From a virus (taxonomy: Duplodnaviria > Caudoviricetes), in IMG/VR virus record IMGVR_UViG_3300048581_000044, positions 25,138 through 89,137 of that record: DNA of 64,000 nt; one strand, given 5' to 3'. Made by a program: the position numbers and the translations under genes. The number at the start of each line of letters is the position of its first letter. Position 1 is the first letter of the stretch. Under the pieces are notes generated by a model. It worked only from the letters and a program-made list of their open reading frames with translations, ran no database searches and was not told the DNA's origin. Shown here in pieces: positions 15,979 to 50,247 of this stretch.

Positions 15979-17868
15979 ATGCTTCTTAACTTTGACCTTT
16001 CGGGTGCCGAGTGGAACGTGGTCGCTTATCTTTCCCAAGACCCAGGGATGCAAGCTGTTGTGCGCTCTGGGAAGTCTCCCCACATTGTCACGGGGGCCAA
16101 GATCAGCGGGCTACCTGAAGACGTTGTAAAGAAAGAAGCGTCAATTATCGGCGACCTGAATGACCCAATTCATATCTCAGAGCTTCGGCAGACAGAGCTT
16201 AAAGGACTTTTGGACGGTGCTAAGTTCCTGCCGCGCACGATGTCTATTCGTCAAGCCGGTAAGAAGTGCCTTGTAGCTGGAACAGAAGTTCTCACACCTG
16301 AAGGTTGGGTAAAGATAGAGGATGTAAAGCAAGGCGATAAAGTCCTACAATGGGATGCTGGAGAGCTTAGCTTTGTAGAGACAAGCGCTATTTATAAATA
16401 TGCTCTAGCTCCAGCTGAGGAGCTTATAGCTTTAAAAGGCCGACATTTTAGCCAGACTGTGACAGCAAACCACCGCTTGCCACTAAAGCATTTGAAAAAA
16501 TACTTCTTCGAAGAATGTACCGCCGCCACACTGCCTGAAAACTGTACGTATGGCATACCGTTATCTGGAAACCTAAACAATAAAACAAGCCTATTAAACG
16601 CCTACGAGACACGCTTACTTGTCGCTATTCAAGCAGACGGCGTTATCAACCCCTACGGACAGGTAGTGTTCAAATTTGCAAAGGAAAGAAAACGCGATAG
16701 GCTTGATAGTATTTTAAGCGCTCTCGGAATCAGCGTAACGATCACTAAGGGAAACCAGTTTCACATCCCACGCGGTCCTATAATTGACAAGCTTGTGAAG
16801 TTGCTAACAGGTGGTTTTGTCTACGAACGTCAGGAACGCCACGCTGTAAAAACCCTTCGTCATGGAGCGCTTTTAAAAAATTACGGCCTTTATCTTTTAC
16901 AGCTTGGTATTACAGAACTACAAGCTTTTGTTAATGAGCAACAATTCTGGGACGGGCACAACCGAAATGGTGGTGCTTGCTTTCAGGCTTTTACGACAAA
17001 CAAGAACAACGCTGACTGGATACAGACCATAAGTCATCTGTGTGGGTGTCGTTGTACTTTAATAAGTCGCGAACCAACTGGGGGATTTGGAAAAAAGACT
17101 CTTCATTGGTTGAGCATTGGAAAGGCTGACACTACCACAACCTCAGTGCTAAAACGTAGTAGCGTAAAGGCCGATAGCGTTTACTGTTTGACAGTTCCAA
17201 GTGGATTCTTCATGGTTAGATATGAAAGTATCATAAGTATAAGCGGTAATAGCAATCACTCGCTGAACTACAGACTTGGTTATCGAACATTCGCACAGCG
17301 CAATGAAATGGATGAAAAGGAAGCGCAAAAGATCGTAAATCTATACCGCGGTGAACGCATCGGGTCAACTATCCGCGGTGGTGCCTACCCCGAGCTAAAT
17401 CACTGGTACGACCGGATCGATGAGCAAATCCGCAAGACCCGTACCATGACAAACTGCTTTGGGCGGAAGATGTATTTCATGGGCCAAATGGGCGATGATC
17501 TCTTTCGAGAAGCCACCGCGGCCGTCCCGCAGTCAACCGTCGTGGATATCACCAATCGTGCGATGCCTTTGATGCTTAATGACAGCTCTCCAGCTTTTGA
17601 GCCTGCGAAATTGCTCGCACAGGTTCACGATTCAACACTTATCGATTATGTCTCGATGGAATTTCACGCCATGGCGCGGTTTGTTATAAAAATGGGACTC
17701 GATTATCTTAGCCCAACGCTCGATTATGGCGAGCCTTTTAAGCTTGGCGTTGATCTTAAAGCGGGTGTTAATTGGGGCGAGAGTATGAAAAAGATAGACA
17801 TGACTCCTGATGAAGATGTCATGGCTGAACGCTTAAAACTATGTTGGAAAGCTTTTAGCCTCATGTGA
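15979..17868 (+). CDS. family A DNA polymerase, C-terminal catalytic part, intein-containing
   Basis: Motif A NFDLSGAE, motif B RQAGKK|SNHSLNY interrupted by the intein, motif C QVHDS. Confidence 0.92.
   Translation: MLLNFDLSGAEWNVVAYLSQDPGMQAVVRSGKSPHIVTGAKISGLPEDVVKKEASIIGDLNDPIHISELRQTELKGLLDGAKFLPRTMSIRQAGKKCLVAGTEVLTPEGWVKIEDVKQGDKVLQWDAGELSFVETSAIYKYALAPAEELIALKGRHFSQTVTANHRLPLKHLKKYFFEECTAATLPENCTYGIPLSGNLNNKTSLLNAYETRLLVAIQADGVINPYGQVVFKFAKERKRDRLDSILSALGISVTITKGNQFHIPRGPIIDKLVKLLTGGFVYERQERHAVKTLRHGALLKNYGLYLLQLGITELQAFVNEQQFWDGHNRNGGACFQAFTTNKNNADWIQTISHLCGCRCTLISREPTGGFGKKTLHWLSIGKADTTTTSVLKRSSVKADSVYCLTVPSGFFMVRYESIISISGNSNHSLNYRLGYRTFAQRNEMDEKEAQKIVNLYRGERIGSTIRGGAYPELNHWYDRIDEQIRKTRTMTNCFGRKMYFMGQMGDDLFREATAAVPQSTVVDITNRAMPLMLNDSSPAFEPAKLLAQVHDSTLIDYVSMEFHAMARFVIKMGLDYLSPTLDYGEPFKLGVDLKAGVNWGESMKKIDMTPDEDVMAERLKLCWKAFSLM
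16267..17250 (+). mobile_element. intein (328 aa) with LAGLIDADG-type endonuclease in PolA motif B
   Basis: Starts CLVAGTEVLTPEGW; block B TANH; AIQADG and FWDG; ends VYCLTVPSG...SGN followed by +1 Ser. Confidence 0.92.
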
Positions 17869-18114: not shown

Positions 18115-18390
18115 CTATTGCTTTTTTACAGGTTCCTGGTCAGATATTTGAGCACTGTATTGCGCCATTAGTTCAGTGTATAGATTCGTAATACCAGCCC
18201 GATTCGCGTCGGCAAGGGTGATCCTACCCACACCGTCGAGAATAATAGCAGCATCAGATCGTTTCATTTTCAGTGTAATGACCTGATCGGCTCTTGGACG
18301 CGGTTGTGGAACAAGTATATCGGCAGAAAATGCAGGTACTATGACCATCAGTATGAAGGCCACGCAATACGCTTTTTTCATTTTGGGCAT
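18115..18390 (-). CDS. small protein with predicted signal peptide
   Basis: MKKAYCVAFILMVIVPAFS-A; GAGGT RBS. Confidence 0.6.
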   Translation of the reverse strand: MPKMKKAYCVAFILMVIVPAFSADILVPQPRPRADQVITLKMKRSDAAIILDGVGRITLADANRAGITNLYTELMAQYSAQISDQEPVKKQ

Positions 18391-18659
18391 ACCTCTTTCC
18401 TGCTTGGTTTCGGAAAATGGGGGAATAGAAAAAACGCGTTATACGCGCGAACTGGCTTGGAGAGTTTGCATTCCAAAACGATTTTGTACGACCCGTCCGC
18501 CGTATAATCTCGGATTTGCACAACCGAAGTTGTCAAATCTGCTGAGATGCTATCAGCAGGCACCGCGTAAACCAGACCGGCGCTATGCTGCGGCGGCAGA
18601 GTTTCTGCACTTGCGGCAGCGCCCACGATCATTGCCGCAATTACCGCTATGATCCGCAT
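18378..18659 (-). CDS. small protein with predicted signal peptide
   Basis: GGAGG RBS before ATG 18659; MRIIAVIAAMIVGAAASA-E. Confidence 0.65.
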   Translation of the reverse strand: MRIIAVIAAMIVGAAASAETLPPQHSAGLVYAVPADSISADLTTSVVQIRDYTADGSYKIVLECKLSKPVRAYNAFFLFPHFPKPSRKEVCPK

Positions 18660-18669
18660 TGATGGCCTC

Positions 18670-19401
18670 CTAACAGGTTGTTGTTGTTCCCATATAAACG
18701 GCTTTTGTAGTGCCATCTATACAAAGCATATTTTTTCCAGTTCCAGTTGTTATCGTTGGAAAATATATCAATTGTGTGGCTTCAATACGAATGGCGGCTG
18801 TCCCGTTCGTCCCAAAGACCAGATTTGCCGCTGAAGGTTCGCTGCGGATGAATGCGGGATTTGTATATTGTGCACTACCTGCCGCGGTGTAGAAATCTAC
18901 TTCTGCATTATACCCAGAATTTGTTACATCAAGACCAACAATGGTCGCAGCGTTTGGCTTTTTAATCGTCGCGGCTACCCCAACAATGGGGGCTTCCCCA
19001 ACGGACAAAGAGGCTAACATCGTATTTGCGTCAGGAGTCCATCGCACAGCAAGGGTCCCGCCGTTTGCCCCGGTTCCTGAAACAGTACCAGTATTACCTG
19101 TGCGTAATTCCACAGTGCTACCGGTACCTGTGCCCGTCCCGCGGGGAAAAGCCACCTGGATATTGGTGGCATTAACGTTGGCGGTGCTGCCGCCTGATAG
19201 GACATATGGAAATTTCCAAATAATGGTTGTGGGTGGTGCGGTATCGCCAGTCGCATCGGCGTGAGGTCCGATGTTCCAGGTATTTGGGGACCAAACGGCG
19301 CCCACACCTGCCGCCCCGCTGGGTGTGCTACCAAAATATATCTGTGCATTTGCCGGAATAAATAGTAGAGCAAAAATTCCGGCCACGAGTGTGCGTTTCA
19401 T
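18670..19401 (-). CDS. Gly/Thr-rich fibre-like protein with predicted signal peptide
   Basis: MKRTLVAGIFALLFIPANA-Q; LVFGTNGTAAIRI and LCID..T..V motifs resemble fibre repeats. Confidence 0.75.
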   Translation of the reverse strand: MKRTLVAGIFALLFIPANAQIYFGSTPSGAAGVGAVWSPNTWNIGPHADATGDTAPPTTIIWKFPYVLSGGSTANVNATNIQVAFPRGTGTGTGSTVELRTGNTGTVSGTGANGGTLAVRWTPDANTMLASLSVGEAPIVGVAATIKKPNAATIVGLDVTNSGYNAEVDFYTAAGSAQYTNPAFIRSEPSAANLVFGTNGTAAIRIEATQLIYFPTITTGTGKNMLCIDGTTKAVYMGTTTTC

Positions 19402-19402
19402 A

Positions 19403-21136
19403 TTAATTGCCTCCCACGTTGTCGTTCATACCCGTCACTGTGATCGTCGGTCTCGGCCATGACCCATTGTTTGCGTCGGGAGTCAAAAACGACGAAACAC
19501 CACCCACGTTAGCATCGTAGATGCGGTAGTCAACGGTGTACACTCCACCCGTTTGGATGTTTAGCGGTAGAGGAAGCGGCACAGAGACACATTTTGTTTC
19601 GCCGGGATTAACGCCAGTGGCGAGTGGAAACTCATACACTCCTGGGGATACTGTCGAGCCTGCCGCTGAAAAAACAAAAGATGCCATTACTTTCGAGTTA
19701 CTGTCAGCAACGAACGCAGCGCATGCCCGAACGCTAATCTCGCCCAAAGGCGGAGTTAGCCCTAGACTGGCGGGAGAATAGGCCGAGGCATTAGCTGGCA
19801 CGCGAAAGGTAACCGCTCCATATGATGTCGCGGTCTTTGGTATCGTAAGCCCACTAACGAGATCAGCGATCAGATTTTCGCGCGCAACGAGTGAATTGTT
19901 GTTCAGCAGGAATAGTGGAAACCCTCCGCTAATTATTACTGTTCCGGCAGCCACGCCTGCCCCTGTGATTGCCTGTCCCGATTGCAGTTGACCGTAAGCT
20001 ACGTCTGATGTCGACGCATGCAAGTAGTTTCCCGAGTTAGTACACCCAGAAACGTCGCCTATGCACCCCACAAATTGAGCTGTTCCTGCTATTTTTTCGC
20101 GCACAATCCCAGGAACAGCCGCAGTCGTTTGCGCGCCGATTCCTATAGTTGCAGGGTCTGCCGAAGTCGCAGAACCACGCCGCACATAAGCCTGATCGCC
20201 ACTTTCAGGCACGGCAATGTAAACTTCTTGGGCGGCCCATGTTGACGGATACGCTGCAAAATAGGTCTGCTGATCACAGCGATCCTTGGACCAGTAGGGG
20301 CGGTCCGGTAAAAGCAAACAGACGCGACCAGACTTTTGATCTAGTGTAAACGCTACTGAGAATAATGTGTTTTCAGGGATCATGGTGTCGAGAATGCCAG
20401 ATAAATTTGCATCCCCCAGCAAGGCACCCGTATTATCAATGTACTCTGCGATGTAAGACGTATTTTGTGTAACAAGATGCACCGCCGCACACGGCAGTGA
20501 AGGAGGACCGGTCCATGTTCCGTAGTTCTGACACCATGCCACAAGATCAACCGATGTTGAGGCGCTAGTTCCTGCGGTAGGCTGCAACAAAAAATCACCA
20601 CTTACGTAAGTGACTAGACCGGGCAACTGTTCGATGACGTGCAAAGCATGTTGATGTGTATCAGCGTAACGCTGGCAGCTAAGTAGCCCTAGGTATGACC
20701 CGACCGCACCAGAAAAAATAGGGCTGCATGTCCCCTTTGTACTTATCGTAAGGGCGTTGCCCGCGTAGCTAGTCGTTGGCAGCGCACCATCAACTGGAGT
20801 AGACCATCCATCTGCGGCCCCCGGAAACATGCCACCAATAAACAGCGCTGTATTATTCTTAACCCACCGCCCCGTCGCCGGAGCGTCCGCGAACGCGAGC
20901 ACGGTCACGCCGTCGATGGTTGCCGTGGAGTCGGCAATTGCGTCGTAGCAGCCTGCATAACCGGTCTCTATGATGCACACGTGCTTGTACGTGCCGGTGA
21001 GCGCGGTTGCCTTTGTCATCGTGGAAAGTGACGCGCGGGTTGGATACGCGCTATCGGAATACGACGGGTACGCCGAATTTGCCAGCGCGGCGCCAGAGAG
21101 CATCACGATAGCGGCAAGGTAACGGAGGAATTTCAT
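19403..21136 (-). CDS. tailspike/fibre-like protein with predicted signal peptide
   Basis: MKFLRYLAAIVMLSGAALA-N; DSTATIDGVTVL...GRWVK resembles tailspike N-terminal domains; Cys-rich body. Confidence 0.75.
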   Translation of the reverse strand: MKFLRYLAAIVMLSGAALANSAYPSYSDSAYPTRASLSTMTKATALTGTYKHVCIIETGYAGCYDAIADSTATIDGVTVLAFADAPATGRWVKNNTALFIGGMFPGAADGWSTPVDGALPTTSYAGNALTISTKGTCSPIFSGAVGSYLGLLSCQRYADTHQHALHVIEQLPGLVTYVSGDFLLQPTAGTSASTSVDLVAWCQNYGTWTGPPSLPCAAVHLVTQNTSYIAEYIDNTGALLGDANLSGILDTMIPENTLFSVAFTLDQKSGRVCLLLPDRPYWSKDRCDQQTYFAAYPSTWAAQEVYIAVPESGDQAYVRRGSATSADPATIGIGAQTTAAVPGIVREKIAGTAQFVGCIGDVSGCTNSGNYLHASTSDVAYGQLQSGQAITGAGVAAGTVIISGGFPLFLLNNNSLVARENLIADLVSGLTIPKTATSYGAVTFRVPANASAYSPASLGLTPPLGEISVRACAAFVADSNSKVMASFVFSAAGSTVSPGVYEFPLATGVNPGETKCVSVPLPLPLNIQTGGVYTVDYRIYDANVGGVSSFLTPDANNGSWPRPTITVTGMNDNVGGN

Positions 21137-21236
21137 TGAAGCACCTCGTAAACATTCTGTGGAAGTAACCCGCGGTCCAATTCGCGCTGGACGCGGGCGA
21201 CGATTTCAGCCTTTGTGCTCTTGCCGTCGTGGGCCA

Positions 21237-21863
21237 TCATGGAACACCCAAAACCCTGTCGATTGTTCCGTCCATCTCAATGTCAAGAAATCCAGCACCA
21301 CCAGCATCGTTCTGGTTGATAACATAAGCGACAACGGTTGTTCCATCTGATGTGATGATGCAATAATTTGTGTCAGCGCTTATTTTTTCGATCCGTACAC
21401 GCAAGACTGCGGCCGAAGACCCGAGTGCTGGCGGCGCGGTGAATGTGACGTTTCCTGCCGTGCTATCACATCTGACAATGCCATCGCTCGACTGGATTGT
21501 TTTGTTTCCAATAGAGTACGTAACTACCCTAATAGCTAGTTTAAGCGCTTTTCGTACCCAGCAACTCGTCGTCGCCACGCCTGTAGCAGCAATATAAGGG
21601 TCTCCAGCGGTTACACCGGGCGCAGCGGCAGTGCCAGGGCAAGCAACGTTATATGGTGCATAAGATGCGCTCAAACTTGCGCTATACCAATCGTATCGAA
21701 CACCGGCTACTTCGGCGCTAAGCGTTAACGAACTCGCCGCACCGAGATCAGCCATATCTTGCAAGGTGCCGATTTTTACAATTGCGCCCTGGGTTCCAGC
21801 TAGGGATGGAATCGCCCACGCAACAAAGGCAAAGGCAGCTAGCGTGAAAGCTTTTATGTTCAT
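21237..21863 (-). CDS. fibre-like protein with predicted signal peptide
   Basis: MNIKAFTLAAFAFVAWAIPSLA-G; C-terminal DGIVRCDSTAGNVTFTAP...IEKISADTN fibre-type module. Confidence 0.75.
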   Translation of the reverse strand: MNIKAFTLAAFAFVAWAIPSLAGTQGAIVKIGTLQDMADLGAASSLTLSAEVAGVRYDWYSASLSASYAPYNVACPGTAAAPGVTAGDPYIAATGVATTSCWVRKALKLAIRVVTYSIGNKTIQSSDGIVRCDSTAGNVTFTAPPALGSSAAVLRVRIEKISADTNYCIITSDGTTVVAYVINQNDAGGAGFLDIEMDGTIDRVLGVP

Positions 21864-21888: not shown

Positions 21889-22314
21889 TCATCCGAACTT
21901 GAAGTGGATGCGGATATAATCGACGATTACGCTGACAACGTACAAGAATCCGGTCCCGAGCAGACCAACCACAGCCCATCCTGCGCCCTTCGCCATAGAG
22001 ATATCACCGCTCAAGATATCAACCGTGGCCTTGATTGCGTCGATCTTCACGTCTTGCTCGCCAAGATGCATCTGACGGTCCTTTGTCTGGTCATCGAACC
22101 GCTTATCGTTCGCGGCGCGCTCGGCTTCGAACAGGTCCAGGATTCTCTGAAAATCCACCCGGTTGTGTTCCGAGTGATCTTTGCGGATGGTCTTTTCTTC
22201 GTCAATCTCGCGGCGGAACCCTTGCATCTCGGCAAGGATCGCGCCATTACCCGATAGAACCTCACGCAGGCTGCTTTCGATGCGACGAAGATTTGAGTTT
22301 TCGGATTCGGTCAT
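21889..22314 (-). CDS. coiled-coil protein with C-terminal TM helix (holin/XhlA-like)
   Basis: ATGA overlap with the o-spanin stop; C-terminal GAGWAVVGLLGTGFLYVVSVIV. Confidence 0.6.
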   Translation of the reverse strand: MTESENSNLRRIESSLREVLSGNGAILAEMQGFRREIDEEKTIRKDHSEHNRVDFQRILDLFEAERAANDKRFDDQTKDRQMHLGEQDVKIDAIKATVDILSGDISMAKGAGWAVVGLLGTGFLYVVSVIVDYIRIHFKFG

Positions 22315-22616
22315 TTCGCCACTGCGGTAGGTTTGACATCGCGACACTTGGCGACGACGGTTTCGAGAAGGTCAAGCCGCTTAGCGCGCAACCGCGCCCC
22401 GGAGTCCAATAGCTTTTCGAAGTCTGCCAGTTCGGCCGCGGATTTGAGCGCGTCCAGCGTATCGGGATAGGTTGGTGCCGCGGTGACAGTATCTGGGACA
22501 CATGACACTGGCGTTGGAACGTCGGCTGTTACGGTGTTAACAACAGGCTCGGATGGCTTGTCGGCACACGCGGAAAGCAAGAGGGCAAGTGTAGCCATGG
22601 CGATACATCGGTTCAT
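22311..22616 (-). CDS. outer-membrane spanin lipoprotein (Rz1-like)
   Basis: Lipobox LLLSA-C, Pro-rich linker; overlaps the i-spanin by ATGA. Confidence 0.8.
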   Translation of the reverse strand: MNRCIAMATLALLLSACADKPSEPVVNTVTADVPTPVSCVPDTVTAAPTYPDTLDALKSAAELADFEKLLDSGARLRAKRLDLLETVVAKCRDVKPTAVAK

Positions 22617-23053
22617 CGGCTTCGATCCTCTATGATCTGTGCTCGCGCGGATATGGCCCGCTCACATTCATTCGCTCCAGCTGGTTTGGCTGCTGCTAGA
22701 ACCGCTAAGCGTGTCAGTAACGCCTCTCTTTCGGTTTGGTTCTTGGCTATAACATCGGCTAGAGCTGCCCGCAGCACGTCGCCCTGCTTCCCAAGGGCGA
22801 GAATTTTGGTATTTTGCTTTGCCACAGCAGTTTCGAGGCCGTCAACGTTCCCGTGGCACTGTCCGAGACTATCCCGTGCCGTCTTGAGCTGCGCTTTCAG
22901 CCCCGGCGCTCCCCACCAAAGAATCTGATAGCCGTTAATCTCGAACGCTTGGTAGAGCGCAACGGGCGTGAAAATAACACCGCACAAGGCTGCGACGGCC
23001 ACAACAGCAACCGCGATTTTGTTTGCTGCCCACGAGGCTATGGTTGCCCACAT
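22613..23053 (-). CDS. inner-membrane spanin (Rz-like)
   Basis: N-terminal TM helix then coiled coil; adjacent to the lipoprotein gene. Confidence 0.75.
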   Translation of the reverse strand: MWATIASWAANKIAVAVVAVAALCGVIFTPVALYQAFEINGYQILWWGAPGLKAQLKTARDSLGQCHGNVDGLETAVAKQNTKILALGKQGDVLRAALADVIAKNQTEREALLTRLAVLAAAKPAGANECERAISARAQIIEDRSR

Positions 23054-23349
23054 TACGTCGGTCCTCCTGCCTTTACTGCCGTGTGTTTATCCCACGATCC
23101 AAAGGCCGCTGTTCCAGCAAACACGCTTGAGATTAGCCCTACAGCCCATACGGCTGAATCTGGAGAGTTAATGTACTGCGCGATGCGTACCAGCACATAT
23201 GCCAAAGCAAGCCCAATCATCAACAAGCCGATAGGGCGGGCTAACACCGAGATCGCAAGCACAGTCTCCCGCAACCATTTCGTCTCAATCTGAGACGCGC
23301 TGGCATTGATTTGGAGAAACGAATTAAGGGCTTGGCCGGGATCACTCAT
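23053..23349 (-). CDS. putative holin (2 TM helices)
   Basis: Two hydrophobic segments and a basic C-terminus; lies in the lysis cassette. Confidence 0.6.
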   Translation of the reverse strand: MSDPGQALNSFLQINASASQIETKWLRETVLAISVLARPIGLLMIGLALAYVLVRIAQYINSPDSAVWAVGLISSVFAGTAAFGSWDKHTAVKAGGPT

Positions 23350-23364
23350 CTCATTACCTTAGCT

Positions 23365-23628
23365 TTAAGCCGTCCAACGACCAAGCATGAAGCTACCAAC
23401 AATAACCCCAAACGCGATGACAATCGCCCACGTCGGATGTTCAGAAACCCACGTCGCCTCTTTGGTCTCAAGATCAACAAGACGAAGCTGCACTGCGGTA
23501 GAGGCGCTTGCAATTTTACTAAGGACCACATTCTTCCGCATAACCAGCGCCTTCCAGTCTGCGTTCAGCTCATGGATTTCCGCATTGAGCATGGCAGCCG
23601 CAACGCCGATGTCTTGCTGAATAGTCAT
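23365..23628 (-). CDS. small membrane protein (C-terminal TM), lysis cassette
   Basis: PTWAIVIAFGVIVGSFMLG; AAGGAG RBS. Confidence 0.6.
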   Translation of the reverse strand: MTIQQDIGVAAAMLNAEIHELNADWKALVMRKNVVLSKIASASTAVQLRLVDLETKEATWVSEHPTWAIVIAFGVIVGSFMLGRWTA

Positions 23629-23641
23629 GTCGATTTCTCCT

Positions 23642-24070
23642 TCAGGACTTTAAAGCTGCGGCAACACCAGCCGCAAGATCAGAATCTTCAAAAAACCACC
23701 CGCCACATTCGTGCGTGGCGATGGCTTTAGCAAGCGCTTCAAGCACTGGCGCATCGTCTAGCTTAAGCGGCCAGTCTGGCGCGCGATGACAAGCATCAGA
23801 CACGGCCTTGATATAAGCGTCTGTGTTGTTCTCGCTTGGAGGTGCCCACCGGCCGATGATCTGGCGTATCGTGTTAAGCCCATGAAGCCGATGATAGTTA
23901 CACAGCACGGTTGCAAGCGCGCGGAAGCCCCACATTGGCGACTTGAACACAGCGAAGCGTTGTTCGTCCAACTGTTCCGGCGACATTTCGTGCGGATCGG
24001 CAAGTCCCTGCCATTGAACGCCGCGTTCGAGATTTCCAGGATTAGAATTTCGCAAAGCCCTAACCGTCAT
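23642..24070 (-). CDS. lysozyme-like protein of the RNNNPGN family, probable endolysin
   Basis: RNSNPGNL...W.G...RFAVF...G.RAL...TIRQIIGRWAPPSENNT..YI..V; adjacent to holin and spanin genes. Confidence 0.7.
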   Translation of the reverse strand: MTVRALRNSNPGNLERGVQWQGLADPHEMSPEQLDEQRFAVFKSPMWGFRALATVLCNYHRLHGLNTIRQIIGRWAPPSENNTDAYIKAVSDACHRAPDWPLKLDDAPVLEALAKAIATHECGGWFFEDSDLAAGVAAALKS

Positions 24071-24746: not shown

Positions 24747-26588
24747 TTAAAAACCAAAGAAGGTCATTATTGCCAGCCCCGGCATTAGCCCTGTGTTAGC
24801 AAGCGATGCAAATCTGAACGTCGCAACACTTCCAGGCCCAACCAAGTTTAGCGGCGGACAGCCTACACAATTCTGTGAACCATCTTGGTTGGTACAGCTC
24901 ACTGTAGCGATACCTGTCCAGGAAGTTCCAGCAGGAGACGGGCTGCTTAGCGTCACATCGATGCCATTGCCACCATTCTGTGCAATGCCTGAAACCCCAA
25001 AGGACTTAACTAATGTAATCGATCCGCCGCTGTATTGACAAATAGCAAACGCCTTTGCCGAACACTGATAAGCGAACACTGATTCAGGCACACCTTGCAA
25101 GATAAAAGCCGTGCCGTTGTAAATAACAGTAAAGATACTATCTGGCGGAAGCTCTGCAATAAATAACGGAGAGCCGTTGCCATGCGTAACAGCTGTAGCC
25201 GCGAGGCTGCCAACTTTTAAAGTAACAGCCCCGGAATTGCCGAAACTAGCATTCTTCTGTACACGGATCGGTACGCCAAGCAGCGCTGCTAGTGACGCTG
25301 GTGTGGGCGAGAGCGTTATTGCCAGAGCGTTAGACGTGCCAGTGTCAACAGCATAGTTTCCAGACTGTTTTTGCACGTATGAGAGACTAGCTAGGCCAGA
25401 AACTGCGTTGTTTACATACGTCGTAGAGGCCAAGCCTGAAACGGCATTGTTTACATAGATTGTAGAAGCCAGACCAGAAACAGCCGCGCTTATCTGACTG
25501 TTGACGTAGCTTACAGAGGCCAGACCGCTAACAGCTGCGCTGATTTGGCTATTGACGTAGGATATTGAAGCCAGTCCAGAGACAGCTGCGGAAATCTGAC
25601 TATTGACATACGTTGTAGAGGCCAAGCCTGAAACAGCAGCAGAAATTTGGCTATTCACGTAGCTCGTTGAAGCCAAGCCGCTGATTGCAGAAGCAACATC
25701 TTGCGTGATTCCAAATTGTGAGCTTCCAACAACGCGCCATATACCGTTAGAGGCAAGGAGCAAAACCGTTGTGCCTTGTGGAATCGTGAAAGACCCAACG
25801 CCTGTACTTGGGGAGGCGACTGTCCCAAAGATAACATCAGCGCCATTGGCCTGTGTTGTAACAACACCCGATGTCGCAGAAGCCAGTGCAAACAGCGATC
25901 CGTTTACGAGCGCGACAACTGGAAGATTGAATGTCGTGGCGCTTGTTGCTTGTAAAAGCGTTCCAGCGTTTCCGCTAGCAAGCGTCAGCGTTCCTGAAAC
26001 GTTGAACGGTTGGAGCGTGTTATTAGCCGATAGCACTGTTTGATAAGCCGTATTCGGCGCAGGAAGCGTCGAGGCCCCAGCAGCTAACGCAAACCGACAA
26101 AGCTCAAACGTTGTTTGATTGTCTGGCGCCGTTGTCGAAGCGCCAAGAGTTATCGAGTTCACCAAAGACGCATAGGCCGTGTACGGAACAAAGCTAGGAT
26201 TATAATCAGGATGCCCTTGCGGCGGCCCAATCACCTGGAAAGGGTCTTGTTGGATCGCCGTCAGCTGCGCGATCAGATAAGCTGTCACGCTCCCTGAACC
26301 CGGTACGACGCTCGTGAAATCAGTCGTATAGGTCTGGGTATCAGCGTTGGATTGCGTGCCGTGTGCGCGTGCAAGCTGCCCATTGCTGAACAGCACGCCA
26401 AAGGGCGCAGGCAAAACCGACGTGAGAACCAAGCCTGTGCTCGTATAGGAAGCGCTCTGTACTGCCACCAAGCCGCTCAGGAGCGCACTCTTTGCCAACT
26501 CCGCCGTATCAGCCTCCAACATTGCACAGGCAACGTTAAAAGCCCCGGCGTTGACATATTGCTCCGGTGCGAAGTTTGGCGTCTTCAC
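24747..26588 (-). CDS. tail fibre protein
   Basis: Follows the baseplate wedge genes; internal A(S/T)xxYVN repeats, YAVDTGTSN module, C-terminal fibre-tip-like region. Confidence 0.8.
   Translation of the reverse strand: MKTPNFAPEQYVNAGAFNVACAMLEADTAELAKSALLSGLVAVQSASYTSTGLVLTSVLPAPFGVLFSNGQLARAHGTQSNADTQTYTTDFTSVVPGSGSVTAYLIAQLTAIQQDPFQVIGPPQGHPDYNPSFVPYTAYASLVNSITLGASTTAPDNQTTFELCRFALAAGASTLPAPNTAYQTVLSANNTLQPFNVSGTLTLASGNAGTLLQATSATTFNLPVVALVNGSLFALASATSGVVTTQANGADVIFGTVASPSTGVGSFTIPQGTTVLLLASNGIWRVVGSSQFGITQDVASAISGLASTSYVNSQISAAVSGLASTTYVNSQISAAVSGLASISYVNSQISAAVSGLASVSYVNSQISAAVSGLASTIYVNNAVSGLASTTYVNNAVSGLASLSYVQKQSGNYAVDTGTSNALAITLSPTPASLAALLGVPIRVQKNASFGNSGAVTLKVGSLAATAVTHGNGSPLFIAELPPDSIFTVIYNGTAFILQGVPESVFAYQCSAKAFAICQYSGGSITLVKSFGVSGIAQNGGNGIDVTLSSPSPAGTSWTGIATVSCTNQDGSQNCVGCPPLNLVGPGSVATFRFASLANTGLMPGLAIMTFFGF
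25374..25682 (-). repeat. in-frame tandem repeat: 4 x 17 aa (SGLAS.xYVNSQISAAV) + 2 x 13 aa + partial
   Basis: Directly visible in the translation; codons are synonymously diverged between units. Confidence 0.9.
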
Positions 26589-26630
26589 TAAATCAGCCTC
26601 AAAAACGATAACGTCTAGTTATGGCGGCTG

Positions 26631-26664
26631 ATTATGCCATAATGTCCGACCGGGGGAGGATAGC
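26631..26664 (-). promoter_or_regulatory. candidate late promoter GCTA-N24-CATAAT
   Basis: Intergenic, upstream of the tail fibre gene; same spacing as four other sites. Confidence 0.55.
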
Positions 26665-26678
26665 AGGAAAGACCGAAT

Positions 26679-27335
26679 CTAGGCGGAAAGTGAGGGATTT
26701 AGCGTCGGATCAGTGAGGAAAAGGTCAGGCAGGCTTGGTGACGTGCTGTTGGTTGCGGCTGGGAGGCTGGTCAAGGATTCAGACTCTCCTGAAGTCAAAT
26801 AAGCACCTGTCACACTTGGAGAAGCGTCAAAGAAATTGATCGTGTTTAGATACAAACCGCTTCCAGCTTTGTAAACAGCTGTGATTGGAACACCGGCAGG
26901 GCGTACACGCGCGAGACTTACCAAGAGCGCTAGAATTTGTGCGTCAGTTAAGGCGGTTATAAAGGTAAGGGAATAACCAACAGCGGGTAAGGATTCCTGT
27001 ACCGTTACATCAACCTGCCAGACAGCTTTGACCCAAGCCGCAATGCCTACTGGCGTACCGCCGCCAGCTAAAACAATGTAAGCAATTCGTGTTAGATAAG
27101 CTCCATCGCTTTCGTTATTAAACCGTGGAACATTGAACAAAAGCCCCCAGATGTCCAGCCAACCAAATCGAGCGTTCTGGAAAGCAGCGACTTGCTGGCT
27201 GATCTGATCGCTAGCACCTGTGTAACGCACCAATCCAGCCGTATTCGCGTCCAGCCACTGCGTGAAAGGAATTTGCGGGCGCAAAAACGTCTTAGGAAGG
27301 GCCGTTAGAACAGCTTGTACTTGCGCAAAGTTCAT
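26679..27335 (-). CDS. baseplate wedge subunit (P2 gpI-like)
   Basis: WLDIWGLLFNVPRFNNESDGAYLTRI motif; ATGA-coupled to the J-like gene. Confidence 0.75.
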   Translation of the reverse strand: MNFAQVQAVLTALPKTFLRPQIPFTQWLDANTAGLVRYTGASDQISQQVAAFQNARFGWLDIWGLLFNVPRFNNESDGAYLTRIAYIVLAGGGTPVGIAAWVKAVWQVDVTVQESLPAVGYSLTFITALTDAQILALLVSLARVRPAGVPITAVYKAGSGLYLNTINFFDASPSVTGAYLTSGESESLTSLPAATNSTSPSLPDLFLTDPTLNPSLSA

Positions 27336-28516
27336 TGACTCAAGTCCATTGCTAGATTGGCAAGCAGGACGCGCCCAGATGGAGGAGGTGTTATGATAGC
27401 TAGAGGGCTGCCGCTTATGGAATTGGAAAGTGTGATCGCTAGGGAACTAAACTGTAAAGAGGCCGTGTTTGAGACAGCTGCGGCTATTTGCGCCTGTTCA
27501 GCTTTTGTACCGAAAGGAAGCGTGAAATAAGCATTCACGGCGCTGACTAACGCGCCGCTCACGAGCGCGACGTTGGCGCTAGAGACGAGTGTGCCAGAGA
27601 CGCTCACGTAGGCCCAGGTTGGGGTTACGGCGTAAATGCCATAAGGCACCCCAGCGTCACGGTAACCGATAGCGCCTGATGCGTTGCTGGCACCTGAGAC
27701 AGTGCCCCCAGTCAATTTGGCGCCCACAGCTGCGATCAACCCTGACGACGCAGTGCCATTGCCGTTGTCGATAAAGAGCTGCCAGCCTGCTTGTCCTGAA
27801 CCTGCACCGCTTCCAGCTTCCAGCCAGGGTTCGAAACAGGTGGCGTAGGCAACCGTCTCGCTTCCATAGCTCACGCCTTGTGCAGCGTTAGCTATTGCAA
27901 CTGGCGAACTCAGCCCAATCGAGGCTACAACAGCGGAGAACTCTGCCAAGGACGCCGATAAACTTGGCGCATTAGCGCCACCAGTCGCAGCCGTAGGATT
28001 GGTAACAAAAAGCGGATAAGTCAAGCCTGAGACAATCGCTGTGATCGAATTGGCTGGAACATTTCCCGCTGCTCCAGCGATCACTGCGCTAACCGGTACG
28101 GAGATGCTGTTAGTCCCGGCTGAAAGCGTTACGGCCGTTGTCGTCTTAAACTGCACGCCGCCGTTCGTCTGAACAAACGTCCCGGCTGGAATCGTAACAT
28201 TTTGAGAAGCTGGTGGCGGGGTTCCCGACGAAGCGGTTGAGAAATCAACAATCGTTGTGGCAGCTGTAGGCTGCCCAGCAAAAATCCCAAACAGCGACAA
28301 CGCACTAAACACAAGCGCCTGATAAGCCAAAGCCTGTGTTTGAATCCCTTGTTGCTCAATCACGGCCCCTTGGCTTTCAGCCATTGTTCGAATTTGAGAG
28401 CCTGGATTGTAATCCGTAAGCACCCCAGACAAAGCTGCCATTAAAGACAGCTCTTGGCTTGCGATCTCTGCCGTAGTCGGCGGTGCCGCGATTGTGATTG
28501 TTGGTGAATCGGCCAT
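27332..28516 (-). CDS. baseplate J-like protein
   Basis: LTDYNPGSQIRTMAE, IPAGT.V, V.A..AG.AGNV..NSIT, VTNP.AA.GG. Confidence 0.88.
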   Translation of the reverse strand: MADSPTITIAAPPTTAEIASQELSLMAALSGVLTDYNPGSQIRTMAESQGAVIEQQGIQTQALAYQALVFSALSLFGIFAGQPTAATTIVDFSTASSGTPPPASQNVTIPAGTFVQTNGGVQFKTTTAVTLSAGTNSISVPVSAVIAGAAGNVPANSITAIVSGLTYPLFVTNPTAATGGANAPSLSASLAEFSAVVASIGLSSPVAIANAAQGVSYGSETVAYATCFEPWLEAGSGAGSGQAGWQLFIDNGNGTASSGLIAAVGAKLTGGTVSGASNASGAIGYRDAGVPYGIYAVTPTWAYVSVSGTLVSSANVALVSGALVSAVNAYFTLPFGTKAEQAQIAAAVSNTASLQFSSLAITLSNSISGSPLAIITPPPSGRVLLANLAMDLSQ

Positions 28517-28527
28517 AGGCTTTTACC

Positions 28528-29976
28528 TCAAGGAGTCGGCGAGAAAACTTCATTAACTGTGGCAGGTGTGGTGTTAAAACCGCCCGGCTGGACAGTTCCT
28601 AAGAACGAGATTTGGCCGTTGGTAAGAAGAGTTGCTTTTGCTGACAACACCGCTACGACACGCGGGTCAGAAGCCAAAGCGCTTTCCCCATATGCACCAA
28701 TGTGTCCAGCTGTTTGGTTATCTTGCACGGCCCCAACTTGCGGCGGGATGCGGCTTCCGAAGAGCAGGTGGTAAATAAGCGTCCCTTGCGTTGTCTGCAA
28801 ACGGCGTCCTAATGAGATCGCTAGATTCTCATAGCCAGAGATGACTTGGAAGTCTCCAGTCCAAGGAGGCATGGAGCCGTTAATCGGCCCGATGTAAATA
28901 TCAGTGCCGAGATAATTTATCGTATAGGACGGAATCGTTCCAACTGCGGCAAGCTGTGTCCCCGGAGACGGAAGCACAAGCTTTGTTCCCCAGCCCGCGA
29001 TCCCCGGAGAGCTGCTCATTCCAACATAGGGAGGCACAAGCGCGTTTAACGTCGCGATCTCAGGCCAACGTTCAAAGTCCCCAAGCGTTCTAGCTGCAAC
29101 GCTACTGAGTGATTCGTTATTCAAAAGCGTCGTCATTTTAATCTGTGTTACGAGCGGCTGACGAAGTGAAAGCAAGAAATTAGAAATCTTAGCGGCCGTC
29201 ACACTCATAACGTTACGCAGTACGGCCTGTTGCTGAAGCTGTTGCGTGTAAGGCGCTCCGGTTAGGGAATCAGCACACATGAGCATGGCAGGAAGCGTAA
29301 CGACTTGGTTCCAAGTGTTTAAGGCCACAACGTTGTTAGCAAACGGCCCTGACGTGACAGACGCGAGTATTTGTGCAACCGACTGGGCGCAAAGATATTC
29401 ACGATAGGCAACGTCATAGAGCTGTGTGACGTTGTTGCCTTGGTAAACACTAATGGCATTGGCAACGATTAAAAATGCAGCCGCTGTAGTGGTAGCTTCA
29501 GCGACAAGATTTGTAGCAGTCAATCCGCTTGGTGGTGTTTCATAGGCGAACACTGAAAAGAAATCCAAAAGCCTAGGAGACGTTATAGCCGCTTCACCGT
29601 TAGTCAGTGTCGAAGCTGCGCCATAAGGCGGAAAGGGCACACGTGGTGCCAAGGCAGCGTTAGCTGTTTGATAAGCCACAAGACGATTTGTAAAAATAGC
29701 TACTGTTGCAGGATCAAGCGCTAACGGAAGCGCTTCGATTTCTTGCAAGTAAAGAATCTCTGCCGTCCAGGCATTGTTAAGGGCATAAGCGTTAACTGCC
29801 TCGATACCGTTTTCTAAAGTCGCAAGCATACTCTCTGACATGAGGGCGATTAGGCTTATAGAGGGTGTTACAACACCAGACACAGGCGTGTTAAAGGCTT
29901 CAAGCTGCGCTGTATAATAAGCGAGCGCTGTGTAGGCTGTTTGCCAGAGTGTTCCTGAATAGCCGACATAAGTCAT
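28528..29976 (-). CDS. baseplate protein with LysM-like and gp25/W-like C-terminal domains
   Basis: ESLSSVAARTLGDFERWPEIATLN (LysM-like); LGRRLQT.QG.LIYH..FGS...L.SDPRV (gp25-like). Confidence 0.65.
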   Translation of the reverse strand: MTYVGYSGTLWQTAYTALAYYTAQLEAFNTPVSGVVTPSISLIALMSESMLATLENGIEAVNAYALNNAWTAEILYLQEIEALPLALDPATVAIFTNRLVAYQTANAALAPRVPFPPYGAASTLTNGEAAITSPRLLDFFSVFAYETPPSGLTATNLVAEATTTAAAFLIVANAISVYQGNNVTQLYDVAYREYLCAQSVAQILASVTSGPFANNVVALNTWNQVVTLPAMLMCADSLTGAPYTQQLQQQAVLRNVMSVTAAKISNFLLSLRQPLVTQIKMTTLLNNESLSSVAARTLGDFERWPEIATLNALVPPYVGMSSSPGIAGWGTKLVLPSPGTQLAAVGTIPSYTINYLGTDIYIGPINGSMPPWTGDFQVISGYENLAISLGRRLQTTQGTLIYHLLFGSRIPPQVGAVQDNQTAGHIGAYGESALASDPRVVAVLSAKATLLTNGQISFLGTVQPGGFNTTPATVNEVFSPTP

Positions 29977-30746
29977 AACGTGATCCCCAGCGCTCCAGGC
30001 GTTGAGCTTTTGTAATTTGCAAGCACTGAGACATTAGAAATAGCCATAGCTGCAATTGCTTGCGGCTGCGACAACGCCAATGCCGAAAGAATAGAATCAT
30101 TCGCTGTGTCGGTTTGAGGTTTCGCAACAGGGGCAATCCCAACTAGCCGAAAAGCGTATTCGAAAAGCAGCGGTCTGCGTTCGTTTTGTCTAACTACCTG
30201 CGGCCCAACAGGGACGACTTGCCAATAGCTTCCAGAGAAATAATCGTAAAACTCCATCGTATAAAGATCAGCGCTTCCGCTCTTGCGCTGCTGTGCGTTA
30301 AAATAAGCGAATTGATTCACAATGTCTTGAAGAGCTGCAATAGCTTCTAAGCCCGTGCTGCTATAGCCATCCGTACTATGATATTGCCAGCCGGTCGTCC
30401 CTTCGATCCGATACGTGACAGGGGAGTTGCCATAAATATCAACCTCACGGTGCACACCAAATTCGCTAGGGTCTCCTGCTACGTCGTAAACATTCGACAT
30501 AGCCGTGAATTCCTTAAACACTGTCGATGGTGATAAAGGAAACGTGAAAGACTGAAACGGTGTGCTTGTGTTATGCGACTCAAAAATAGAAATAGCGTAA
30601 AGGGCCGTCCGAGAATTTGGAAGCGGGATCGTCTGAAACGATTGTCCAACAACTCGCGCAGAAAGCGCAACAGTTGAACCGTTGAAGCCAATCCCAAGCT
30701 GTGTGCCAGAGGCCGCTAAGTTAAAGGGAAACCCTAAGCCTGCCAT
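29973..30746 (-). CDS. baseplate/tail structural protein
   Basis: Position within the tail module; RPLLFEY.F.L motif. Confidence 0.55.
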   Translation of the reverse strand: MAGLGFPFNLAASGTQLGIGFNGSTVALSARVVGQSFQTIPLPNSRTALYAISIFESHNTSTPFQSFTFPLSPSTVFKEFTAMSNVYDVAGDPSEFGVHREVDIYGNSPVTYRIEGTTGWQYHSTDGYSSTGLEAIAALQDIVNQFAYFNAQQRKSGSADLYTMEFYDYFSGSYWQVVPVGPQVVRQNERRPLLFEYAFRLVGIAPVAKPQTDTANDSILSALALSQPQAIAAMAISNVSVLANYKSSTPGALGITL

Positions 30747-32608
30747 TAGATGATCTCCAAAACAATGTCGTTTAACGAGCTTGTGGCAAAAAGGCTATTA
30801 TTTATCCATTGCAGGCTGGAGATTCCCAAAGGTGTTGCTTGGGGCTGTCCTGTAAACTGCGTGATAACACCCGAAGCAATGACTCCTCCCGTGGGAGAGA
30901 TTGTAAAAAGCTCATTTTGCAAAGTCGCGACTGTTATGCGGCCCGAGGGATCAAACGTCAAAGCTGTAGGGATATAGCTTTGGAGGTTAGTTGTTACCCA
31001 GCCTGAGCCGTTGTATGTTGAAACCTCTCCGTTCTTGTTAGCAGCTAAAGCATAAGGCGCAGAGAGGTTAAAAAACTCTGTAGCACCGCTTCCTGCCGCG
31101 ATGATCGTTGTAGCGACAGTGATCGGTGATATGATCGATGTTGCGTTTAAGGCTTGTAAGCTGTTTGGCCCTTGGTAATCGTTCTGTTCTGTAAGCGCAC
31201 CAGCGAATAAACTGAACACACGCAGACGTGAATTAGTGCCATCAGCGATCACGTATTGGCCTTGCTGGTAAAACAATCCAACAACTGATCCTGAGAACGT
31301 AGCTGTCAGCCCTTGCGTATAAAGATAGCCGTTAGCTCCTTGAGTTCCAGCGGCAATGATGTTTCCAAGGGAATCACTCGCAAGATAAGAGGGTGTGAAC
31401 GAGAGAGTCGTTGAAGCTCCAATCACCCAGGCTCCTAACGTGTATTGTAAATTAACCAACGCGCCACTTGCCCCTACAACTGCGGTAGAGGCCGTAGGTA
31501 AGAAAACCGAACTAGCTTTAGCAATCGAAAGCGGTGCGCCTAGTGCCCAGGTTGAACCTCCTAGGCTCAAAGACGTTACGGTGTTTAAGCTTGGCTGACA
31601 AGCGAGCGCTTTTGTTGCGTTAGGCGTGAGGCCAACAGCGGTTGCACCGCTAAGAGCAAGAGTTTGAGAACGCGTCAGCGAGCCGAACGTGTAGTTAAAC
31701 ACGCTTAGGACGTTATTGATGGAATCAGTTCCAAGTAGTGTGTTCCCGATAGAAGACCACGCTAGGGCGTTTAGACTCCCAATACCGCTTAGCGTTTGGG
31801 TTTCAGCCCAGCCGTTAAGACCATTGAGCTGCCAATACGAGATAGCTGAAACAGCAGGCGTTGCTCCAATGAAGGAAGTGTTGTTTAGAGGATTAGCCGC
31901 AAGCGCTGAAAAGCCAGAGCTTATAGTCATTGTCCCCCAACCGCCTACAGCAATAAGGCTTCCGCTGACAGCTAGACAGCTTGGCACAGGCATAGGCGTA
32001 GCGATGAGGCTACTAGTCACAACAGCGCCTGAACCTGTTCCTGAGATCGTGGCAGTGCCTATGCCGCTAGCTGTTGCTGATAACGTGTAAAGCTTATTAC
32101 CTTGGCCGGACAGTGTTAGAGCCGGAGAGCCAAAGGTTCCAATTGCGACTAACCCACTCGTCCCAAGTCCAGATGACGCAAAGAGATCGGCTGTAGAGAG
32201 AACGTCATAGAGACTAAGAATGTCGATAGTTGTCGTGTTTTCAGCTAGCGTGTAGATATTTCCCGACGCATCAACAGCGTAAGGGACTGTACTAAGTGAT
32301 CCGAGTCCTGTAAAAACAATGGCTGCATTTGGAGGAACATAAGCGTTAACGATCCCGCTCATGTTGTAAAGGCTAAGTGGCCCATAAAAAGGCAGAAGCC
32401 AGAGTCCGACGTTACCGCTAGGGGCTACGCCAGCAAAGCCAAGCTCTGTGCTACCTGACACTGCCGTGGTCGCAATGACGCCAGCGTTAAGCTGATAAGC
32501 GCTTGGGTGCTCCCAGGCAGGCAAAAACACCCCACTCGCCCACGCGGTTTGCAAGGTCGCTCGGATCGACGTATGTGAGTCGCTATAGCGATAGTAGCCT
32601 GAAGCCAT
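30746..32608 (-). CDS. large Ser/Thr/Gly-rich beta-structured virion protein (possible beta-propeller)
   Basis: 620 aa of alternating beta-strand-like segments with very few charged residues. Confidence 0.55.
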   Translation of the reverse strand: MASGYYRYSDSHTSIRATLQTAWASGVFLPAWEHPSAYQLNAGVIATTAVSGSTELGFAGVAPSGNVGLWLLPFYGPLSLYNMSGIVNAYVPPNAAIVFTGLGSLSTVPYAVDASGNIYTLAENTTTIDILSLYDVLSTADLFASSGLGTSGLVAIGTFGSPALTLSGQGNKLYTLSATASGIGTATISGTGSGAVVTSSLIATPMPVPSCLAVSGSLIAVGGWGTMTISSGFSALAANPLNNTSFIGATPAVSAISYWQLNGLNGWAETQTLSGIGSLNALAWSSIGNTLLGTDSINNVLSVFNYTFGSLTRSQTLALSGATAVGLTPNATKALACQPSLNTVTSLSLGGSTWALGAPLSIAKASSVFLPTASTAVVGASGALVNLQYTLGAWVIGASTTLSFTPSYLASDSLGNIIAAGTQGANGYLYTQGLTATFSGSVVGLFYQQGQYVIADGTNSRLRVFSLFAGALTEQNDYQGPNSLQALNATSIISPITVATTIIAAGSGATEFFNLSAPYALAANKNGEVSTYNGSGWVTTNLQSYIPTALTFDPSGRITVATLQNELFTISPTGGVIASGVITQFTGQPQATPLGISSLQWINNSLFATSSLNDIVLEII

Positions 32609-32636
32609 AATGCGGCTAGGGTACTACAGAATCAGC

Positions 32637-33488
32637 CTAATCTGAGATACCGATAATGGTGCTGGAGATGTCTGAGGCTGAGAGATTTGTCGTCGGTGTG
32701 CCGCTGTTGGCTGTTCCAGCTTGCACAAGCTTATGCGTGTGATTATTGAACTTATCGATAAGCTTAGAGACTAGCGTTAGGAAATCGGACGGAGAACTGC
32801 CACCTTGGGTGATATTAAGCTTGTCGCCGCCAGCAAGCGCGATTGTGGCTGTTCCTGTGTTGCCAATCGATAGCGTTGTGCCGCCAATTACAATATTCAA
32901 AGCTGAAACGCCGGAGACTGCCACGCTTCCACTTGTATCAACCTCGATTGTTGTTCCGGTAGCGTGTTTGAAAAAGAAATTGAAAGGTGAAGGAGGCGCC
33001 GTGACACGTTCTGCATATGTGAAAGGAATTCGTTGCTGTGCGTTGCTTGCGTCTACTGTGTGGCGATAGGCGGTAGGGAGTGTAGTTCCCGAGGCGGCTA
33101 CAATATAGCTTCCATCAGCAAACTGCTCTGCAAGATTTCCTAAGCCGTCGAGTAACCGCCAATGCCCCGAGAAGGTGGATTCATAATCGATAAAGGGATC
33201 AGTTGGGGCTGAGCCGCTTGCCTGTGTAGCGGTCATGGCGTCCAGGCCGCTGGGGAGATAAGCCCCTAGCCAAATTCCATTACGAATGTCGCCATAAGGG
33301 AAGATGACAACTCCCCAAGAGCCGATTTGAGGTAAGGGTTTCTGTTTAACACGCACAGCGTCTGCGTAATCGAGCAGCATAAGGACATCTGCTGCAAGCT
33401 CCTGGCCGGTGGACTGAAAAAGCACACGAAGCCCACGCGGGGGGCTGAGAGCTGTGACTCGTGCTAGGGCGAAGGAGAGTCCTTGCAT
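32637..33488 (-). CDS. baseplate central spike (gpV/gp45-like)
   Basis: PLPQIGSWGVVIFPYGD...GIWLG OB-fold motif; beta-helix segments; C-terminal FNNHTH metal-binding tip. Confidence 0.8.
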   Translation of the reverse strand: MQGLSFALARVTALSPPRGLRVLFQSTGQELAADVLMLLDYADAVRVKQKPLPQIGSWGVVIFPYGDIRNGIWLGAYLPSGLDAMTATQASGSAPTDPFIDYESTFSGHWRLLDGLGNLAEQFADGSYIVAASGTTLPTAYRHTVDASNAQQRIPFTYAERVTAPPSPFNFFFKHATGTTIEVDTSGSVAVSGVSALNIVIGGTTLSIGNTGTATIALAGGDKLNITQGGSSPSDFLTLVSKLIDKFNNHTHKLVQAGTANSGTPTTNLSASDISSTIIGISD

Positions 33489-33501
33489 TTTTTAGTGTTC
33501 C

Positions 33502-34368: not shown

Positions 34369-34372
34369 TTCC

Positions 34373-34930: not shown

Positions 34931-34971
34931 TTCCCAAATCCCTCTCGCTAAGACGTTGTCTGTTGTGAGGC

Positions 34972-35000
34972 AATATGGTAGCAAATTCGTCCTTTGTCAA
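34972..35000 (-). promoter_or_regulatory. sigma70-like promoter for rmlC-rmlD
   Basis: TTGACA (35000-34995)-N17-CATATT (34977-34972) in the divergent gap. Confidence 0.65.
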
Positions 35001-35031
35001 ACAACGGCTATGGCTAAAAAGCGAGGAAACC

Positions 35032-50232: not shown

Positions 50233-50247
50233 GCGCCTGCGCCTCGC

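Follow-up and report, generated by a model that had tools for sequence, protein, structure and literature searches.

Five consecutive genes, which we call A to E, occupy positions 18115-21863 on the minus strand of a stretch of 64,000 nucleotides (the window) from an uncultured contractile-tailed phage, and their products, to judge from the sequences, almost certainly leave the cytoplasm by means of functional leaders. The window corresponds to bases 25138-89137 of an 89,137-bp IMG/VR virus record (IMGVR_UViG_3300048581_000044) rated 95% complete, and the genome of ~89 kb is labelled G000 in the comparisons below. With a probability of about one half, we read A to E as a mobile cassette of exported accessory proteins that act on the host envelope and are not building blocks of the particle. 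Three independent lines of evidence argue that the leaders are functional, namely their conservation in relatives, selection on the leader of B and the parity of the Cys residues. The genes are the following, in the order of transcription (the arrow marks the predicted cleavage site).

21237-21863, minus strand: gene A, 208 amino acids (aa); ribosome-binding site GAGGA; leader score 4.33; leader MNIKAFTLAAFAFVAWAIPSLA↓G (site SLA↓G), alternative site AWA↓I; 4 Cys in the mature chain.

21133-21240, minus strand: a previously unlisted open reading frame (ORF) of 35 aa that bridges A and B, below the usual ORF length cut-offs; product hydrophilic and without a leader.

19403-21136, minus strand: gene B, 577 aa; leader MKFLRYLAAIVMLSGAALA↓NSAYPS, followed by a conserved N-terminal domain (N-domain, ~aa 25-95) and a unique body; 12 Cys in the mature chain.

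18670-19401, minus strand: gene C, 243 aa; ribosome-binding site GGGAGG; start overlapping the stop of B; leader MKRTLVAGIFALLFIPANA↓Q; mature chain rich in Thr, Gly and Ala, with 2 Cys near the C-terminus.

18378-18659, minus strand: gene D, 93 aa; start revised to the ATG at 18659, with AGGAGG 6 nt upstream; leader score 5.19; leader MRIIAVIAAMIVGAAASA↓E; mature chain of 75 aa with 2 Cys.

18115-18381 or 18390, minus strand: gene E, 88 or 91 aa, the last gene before a convergent DNA polymerase gene; leader score 5.11; leader M(PKM)KKAYCVAFILMVIVPAFS↓A (AFS↓A, or VPA↓F); mature chain of ~68 aa with 0 Cys.

All five genes have a Shine-Dalgarno sequence, and their stops and starts overlap or adjoin one another. 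The sole gap, between A and B, is filled by the 35-aa ORF, which shares ATGA stop/start overlaps with A at one end and with B at the other. These overlaps suggest translational coupling from A through the small ORF to B, and the product of the small ORF could be a cytoplasmic partner whose translation is coupled to theirs. After training on 17 confident genes of G000, a codon-usage model gave its best score of the six frames to the annotated frame for each of the five genes. An earlier note on this DNA had described five consecutive late genes with signal peptides after the lysis cassette, and the ribosome-binding sites, the codon usage and the leader scores reported below bear it out. The five ORFs that it delimited are real, but its gene limits need two corrections: the fourth gene most likely starts at the ATG at 18659, which the AGGAGG motif serves, and not at the first ATG at 18716, and the 35-aa ORF had not been listed. 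There are no paralogues of A to E within the G000 genome, and C, D and E are ORFans (C by protein search; D and E by all-against-all BLAST of G000 against itself and against the phage G001 introduced below). A scan for promoters and terminators found no sites above chance level in the region. One site of this kind is a short GC hairpin with a T-run at 18434-18448 on the minus strand, located in the 3' part of gene D just ahead of E.

For the prediction of leaders we used a custom heuristic that combines the charge of the n-region, an uncharged h-region and small residues at positions -3 and -1, and that requires a ribosome-binding site. It was applied to all ORFs of the 89-kb genome. The products of A to E scored 4.3-5.2, at the top of the whole genome; the only other high scores were those of the spanins, of a holin-like protein and of two genes at 48994-51042. 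The five leaders have a basic n-region with a net charge of +1 to +3 and an uncharged h-region of 12-16 residues, against ~7-15 in the usual tripartite Sec leader. Their cleavage sites are all of the small-x-small type (ALA↓N in B, ANA↓Q in C, ASA↓E in D, and those given above for A and E). Reading of the sequences of A to E revealed no lipobox, no twin-arginine motif and no prepilin site of the type G↓F-x-x-x-E. Among the five proteins, only B has a later hydrophobic stretch after its leader. This Gly/Ala-rich segment in the middle of the mature chain (aa 392-411, window positions 19903-19962, minus strand; Kyte-Doolittle 19-residue mean of 1.85) could correspond to a buried strand region or to a segment that is active on membranes.

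When 1.84 billion representative proteins were searched exhaustively with HMMER, the only relatives of B returned, in addition to a 359-aa fragment of B itself, were four proteins, P0002, P0003, P0006 and P0007. They share with B only the first ~95 residues, i.e. the leader and the N-domain, and their bodies differ. B thus appears, from the alignment of its members, to belong to a tiny family in which a leader and a conserved N-domain of ~75 residues are joined to an interchangeable body. Protein P0006 is encoded in G001, a complete phage genome of 67,728 bp with terminal repeats, and reading the neighbours of its gene revealed the one relative of A, a 200-aa protein with its own leader (36% identity, E 1e-29). 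Word-indexed searches of 5.8 billion proteins had missed this real homologue: in them, A and C matched only themselves. A tblastn search of 50,697 GenBank phages with A, B and C yielded no match. Pattern scans of viral contigs, of 185,579 species genomes (for the N-domain of B only) and of Joint Genome Institute (JGI) metagenomes (for A only) found nothing beyond G001 for A, B or the B N-domain. For C, D and E, no counterpart was found in any relative or search. Downstream of P0002 is a gene for an 85-aa protein with a leader of its own, MNKVAAVLSALLFTSSAVA↓Q (contig L003, 1610-1867). That protein has no similarity to D, and its single 20-residue match to E (pairwise E 0.009) is not convincing.

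Leaders are predicted in all five members of the B family and in both members of the A family; that of P0003 is present if the protein is started at an internal Met. The cleavage context is alike throughout the B family (ALA↓NSAYPS, GLA↓NSSYPG or GA↓YSAYPSY). Over the first 26 codons, the genes for B and its G001 relative differ at 20, with 12 synonymous and 8 conservative changes. Codons 16-25, which encode AALA↓NSAYPS, have seven synonymous changes and no replacement. The leader and the mature N-terminus of B are thus under purifying selection and are not a recent copy.

This conservation also bears on the idea that the hydrophobic N-termini are uncleaved signal anchors, which would remain in the inner membrane and hold the proteins to it. 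The h-region of D, long (16 residues) and rich in Ala and Gly, is somewhat like signal-anchor-release domains. However, h-regions of 12-16 residues are short for a stable anchor, and a canonical small-x-small site follows every one of them. Moreover, purifying selection has kept the residues NSAYPS behind that site throughout the B family, which fits a defined mature N-terminus. We regard tethering by uncleaved leaders as improbable.

The third line of evidence comes from the Cys residues. The four relatives of B and the one of A have 10, 12, 8, 18 and 4 Cys in their mature chains, and three proteins of a second group of leader-bearing proteins of G000, encoded at 48647-51042, have 2, 4 and 4. 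The count is thus even in 12 of the 12 Cys-bearing mature chains (A to D, the five relatives and the three proteins of the second group). Among the other 94 ORFs of G000 it is even in 31 and odd in 51, and 12 have no Cys (~38% even). The 12 Cys of B form six neighbouring pairs, 54/63, 137/154, 202/216, 273/287, 358/365 and 472/516. In the N-domain, the Cys pair has one position common to B, P0002 and P0003 and a second one common to P0006 and P0007, a difference between subgroups that is expected if Cys come and go in pairs. An even and paired pattern is what one expects of disulfide-bonded proteins of an oxidising compartment, and we consider it very probable that the proteins of the cluster are exported and form disulfide bonds. 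Export, probably with disulfides, was the premise common to both explanations offered in the earlier note, and it is upheld by the leaders in all relatives, the purifying selection at the cleavage region and the even Cys counts. That note had called the 577-aa protein Cys-rich; the enrichment is modest (2.15% in mature B vs 1.45% in the genome), and the even, locally paired arrangement is the informative part.

The second group, on the minus strand just after the capsid region, comprises proteins of 412, 264 and ~116 aa, the smallest of which carries an HEDGH motif resembling a metallopeptidase site.

The same evidence addresses a trivial explanation, namely that A to E are ordinary cytoplasmic proteins whose N-termini happen to be hydrophobic, or are not genes at all. 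Since C, D and E are ORFans, the conservation of their leaders cannot be checked, and this leaves some room for chance in their case. Nevertheless, coincidence would have to account for five leaders in a row among ~100 genes, for the best codon usage being in frame in all five, for leaders kept in every relative of A and B, and for the 12 even Cys counts against a background of ~38%. It is very unlikely to do so.

The five genes form the distal end of a late, co-directional transcription block of a myovirus of ~89 kb. From 63710 down to 18115 all substantial genes of the window are on the minus strand, including the portal-to-capsid region, and the plus-strand genes, among them a split DNA polymerase, reach up to 17868. 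The tail sheath was recognized by its match to sheath genes of GenBank phages (~25% identity), and the baseplate wedge and baseplate proteins are backed by PHROG matches. A fibre gene codes for a 613-aa protein without a leader; the adjoining 203-aa protein matches no family. These leaderless fibre and baseplate genes are located within 24747-40000. G000 is remote from known phages: the nearest cultured ones reach only that ~25% identity in the sheath, and a search for close relatives returned one distant contig, L002, which lacks the five-gene block. No tRNA genes were found in the G000 genome. The C-terminal half of the split DNA polymerase (15979-17868, plus strand) seems to have an intein-like insertion, apparent from the translation only, which starts with CLVAGTEV after a conserved KK; the extein seems to resume at about SNHSLNY.

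Directly upstream of the block are the following genes.

23642-24070, minus strand: endolysin (phrog_873, E 2e-46).

23053-23628, minus strand: two small membrane proteins, of which the one of 98 aa has two helices and is holin-like.

22613-23053, minus strand: i-spanin-like gene; the spanin pair is supported by a PHROG match to the Rz-like spanins phrog_456/phrog_812.

22311-22616, minus strand: o-spanin lipoprotein gene with the lipobox LLSAC, overlapping the i-spanin-like gene (phrog_456/812).

21889-22347, minus strand: 152-aa coiled-coil protein with a C-terminal membrane helix, directly upstream of A.

The order after the lysis genes is therefore the coiled-coil protein gene, genes A to E and the convergent DNA polymerase gene. 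To judge from the spanin pair, the host has an outer membrane and thus a periplasm.

This position suggests a link to lysis. Above all the small exported D and E, and perhaps A, might regulate or sense lysis from the periplasm in the manner of the T4 antiholin RI, and proteins of the B type would cut an outer layer of the envelope as an additional step of lysis. The block comes directly after the genes for the endolysin, the holin-like protein and the spanins. A holin-like fragment and a tail-anchored coiled-coil membrane protein accompany the A-like and B-like genes of G001, and the gene for P0007 is the third after that of a phage lysozyme, on a contig of 5.4 kb. T4 RI itself is a small periplasmic protein with a cleavable leader (cited in PMC13577005). 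However, searches of Pfam and PHROG revealed no homology of the five proteins to RI or to any lysis family, and G000 already has a complete set of holin, endolysin and spanins. Furthermore, the holin and spanin candidates of G001 come after its tail fibre gene, ~20 kb from the A-like and B-like genes, so that their linkage to a functional lysis cassette is not kept between the two phages. A lysis function is possible but rather unlikely.

The comparison with G001 is more informative about how the genes travel. G001 is a myovirus as well, with sheath, hub and wedge proteins identified by PHROGs, but an all-against-all BLASTP comparison found only seven ORFs in common with G000. These correspond to the N-domain of B, A, the holin-like protein, a fibre domain together with an overlapping ORF on the opposite strand, and two ORFs 5' of the late block. 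The first 50 aa of the 98-aa holin-like protein are 68% identical to a 67-aa fragment encoded beside the B-like gene of G001. The 152-aa coiled-coil protein has a weak counterpart beside the A-like gene (20% identity, pairwise E 2e-6, same architecture). The sheath, hub and wedge proteins of the two phages do not match at a BLASTP threshold of E 1e-5. By these sequence comparisons, A and B are closer between the two phages than any virion protein.

In G001 the gene order is portal, a 176-aa protein, a head-morphogenesis gene of phrog_324, the B-like gene, the 67-aa holin-like fragment, a duplicate of the phrog_324 gene, the A-like gene and the gene for the coiled-coil membrane protein. The A-like and B-like genes are thus placed among head genes and not tail genes. 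At the threshold used, their products are the only leader-bearing proteins of G001 apart from one that has a lipobox-like Cys site. From their surroundings in the two phages, A and B appear to move together with small membrane proteins and not to be tied to the tail module. The two phrog_324 copies (L005/L008, 3706-4527 and 7081-7914) flank the B-like gene and the truncated holin-like gene; this duplication resembles a scar left when a cassette was inserted by recombination.

The earlier note had ascribed bodies like those of tail fibres or tailspikes to three of the five proteins. The likeness is confined to short motifs. Searches of A to E against Pfam, PHROG and NCBIfam gave no match, including none to a fibre, tailspike or lysis family and no S74 domain. 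Likewise, PHROG and PADLOC returned no match to exclusion or receptor-masking proteins (Llp, Cor, Sp, Imm) or to defence systems. Sequence searches of the PDB with B, C, a profile of A, P0003 and P0006 gave nothing meaningful. AlphaFold2 models of B and A have a mean predicted local distance difference test (pLDDT) score of 29.6 (alignment of five sequences) and 36.6 (two sequences), respectively. The Atlas models of B and C have a pLDDT of 0.48, and their neighbours are below 0.9 or unnamed. The bodies of P0003 and P0006 gave sub-threshold matches of the beta-helix or rhamnogalacturonase type (E 0.025-0.057). A Bacteroidota-type glycosylation motif, D-S/T-x, was considered in B and dropped (~3 counted by eye vs ~1.5 expected).

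Several observations are nevertheless of the kind expected of virion appendages. The earlier note had proposed that such appendages acquire their fold in the periplasm and are added to the particle at lysis. In this scheme A, B and C would fold and be oxidised in the periplasm and attach to finished particles when lysis mixes the compartments, the N-domain of B serving as the docking module. B does combine a conserved N-domain with a swappable body, as is typical of receptor-binding proteins, and the mature chains of A, B and C, of low charge and rich in Ala, Gly, Ser, Thr and Val, are fibre-like in composition. The Atlas neighbours of C include clusters of the phage fibre type, with weak scores and from a low-confidence model. 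Over its last 70 residues, A can be aligned in register with a domain of ~90 residues of the G000 fibre, with an hhalign E of 0.008 but a probability of only 4.9%. That domain (NYAVDxGTxNA...IRVKK...) occurs once in the 613-aa fibre of G000 (25089-25367, minus strand) and three times in the fibre of G001 (L009, 8600-9613), with 44-49% identity.

The appendage proposal gained nothing from the genomic data. A fibre gene without a leader and a full set of baseplate genes are already present in the phage, and the five genes are beyond the lysis genes, outside the structural and tail block. A and B are common to G000 and G001 although the virion proteins of these phages show no detectable similarity, with no detectable baseplate or tail protein in common on which the products could dock, save a widespread fibre-shaft domain. 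In addition, attachment after lysis would occur under dilution. We are aware of no tailed phage in which signal peptidase processes a virion protein, and a search of the open-access full-text literature found none. We therefore consider appendages matured in the periplasm improbable. We give an equally low chance to the broader idea that part of the host-recognition gear is made outside the cytoplasm, with A, B and C added at lysis, or, in a weaker form, that the genes are a lysis-coupled travelling module of exported receptor-binding or glycan-cutting proteins. If it were true, part of the host-recognition gear of a tailed phage would be made outside the cytoplasm, whereas tailed phages are thought to assemble every part of the particle inside it.

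The leaderless fibre and baseplate genes, the location of the block beyond the lysis genes and the lack of a shared docking partner other than the fibre-shaft domain favour instead the accessory cassette, and a non-virion role of the block is moderately supported. The second proposal of the earlier note, that proteins derived from fibres are exported as receptor or envelope factors, fits this anatomy better than the appendage route, although it is an inference; the searches established no fibre ancestry, function or fold for the proteins. In the accessory-cassette reading, A to E would leave the cytoplasm through the Sec pathway and be processed by signal peptidase I, and all but E, whose mature chain has no Cys, would be oxidised to disulfide-bonded proteins in the periplasm. 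A and B would be the core of a small cassette that passes between unrelated phages with the tail-anchored coiled-coil membrane protein and the holin-like gene. The conserved N-domain of B would dock on an invariant envelope partner, which would be protein A or a component of the host, and its variable body would bind or cut a strain-specific envelope glycan. The proteins would build up in the periplasm late in infection and act there, or once released at lysis. By masking or destroying receptor or matrix material, they might prevent the loss of progeny on debris and shut out late-arriving phages. The activity on glycans or receptors is what we infer for these proteins.

Several points weigh against this reading. 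The leader calls come from our own heuristic and not from SignalP. Family, PDB and model searches assigned no function, fold or enzymatic motif to any of A to E, and the beta-helix hints in P0003 and P0006 fall below every threshold. The receptor-binding proteins of virions, too, classically consist of a conserved N-domain and a variable body. Exclusion genes are often early, and to find them late in a phage that is probably virulent is unusual. Finally, Sec export reaches the periplasm only, and action at the cell surface would need lysis or a further route. Even if read conservatively, the products of the block would make up a new family of phage accessory proteins that act on the envelope. 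We found no description of such an exported cassette in the open-access full-text literature, and the block points to a class of interaction between phages and the host envelope for which we found no experimental description.

Among known systems, phage tail fibres, tailspikes and depolymerases share with B a conserved N-terminal module with diversified bodies and a composition rich in small and beta-branched residues. In contrast to them, all members of the B family have a predicted cleavable leader, their genes are outside the tail module and have no significant family match, and the phage has separate, ordinary fibre genes. The closest printed architecture that we could document is that of the mosaic adhesive trimer (MAT) fibres of Bdellovibrio bacteriovorus, which have a leader, a conserved beta-rich N-domain thought to bind a cell-surface element, and variable bodies and tips like those of phage fibres (PMC10769870). 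An alignment of the five B members, set against that description, indicates the same layout of leader, conserved N-domain and variable body. The likeness would be one of analogy: no homology was found (none of the four relatives returned by HMMER is from Bdellovibrio), the N-domain of B has ~75 aa vs 130, there is no S74 domain, and B is encoded by a phage whereas MAT fibres are encoded by a predator.

In role, the closest proteins would be T5 Llp, Cor, and T4 Spackle and RI, again by analogy and without homology. The exported proteins of tailed phages known to us are few and small, namely spanins, some endolysins, Llp, Cor, Spackle and RI. T5 Llp and the Cor proteins of phi80 and N15 are receptor-blocking lipoproteins, T4 Spackle and RI are small periplasmic proteins with leaders, and lambda Bor and Lom are also exported. 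All of these have export signals and act in the host envelope rather than in the particle, and several have fibre or lysis genes as neighbours; Llp serves both to block superinfection and to shield progeny from receptor on debris. The proteins of the present block are alike in their export signals, but they have no sequence relationship to any of these and no lipobox. Here, in a seemingly virulent phage, five such genes follow one another at the end of the late block and code for disulfide-rich proteins of up to 577 aa. One of them, B, is built like a receptor-binding protein whose body can be swapped, and the cassette is common to unrelated myoviruses.

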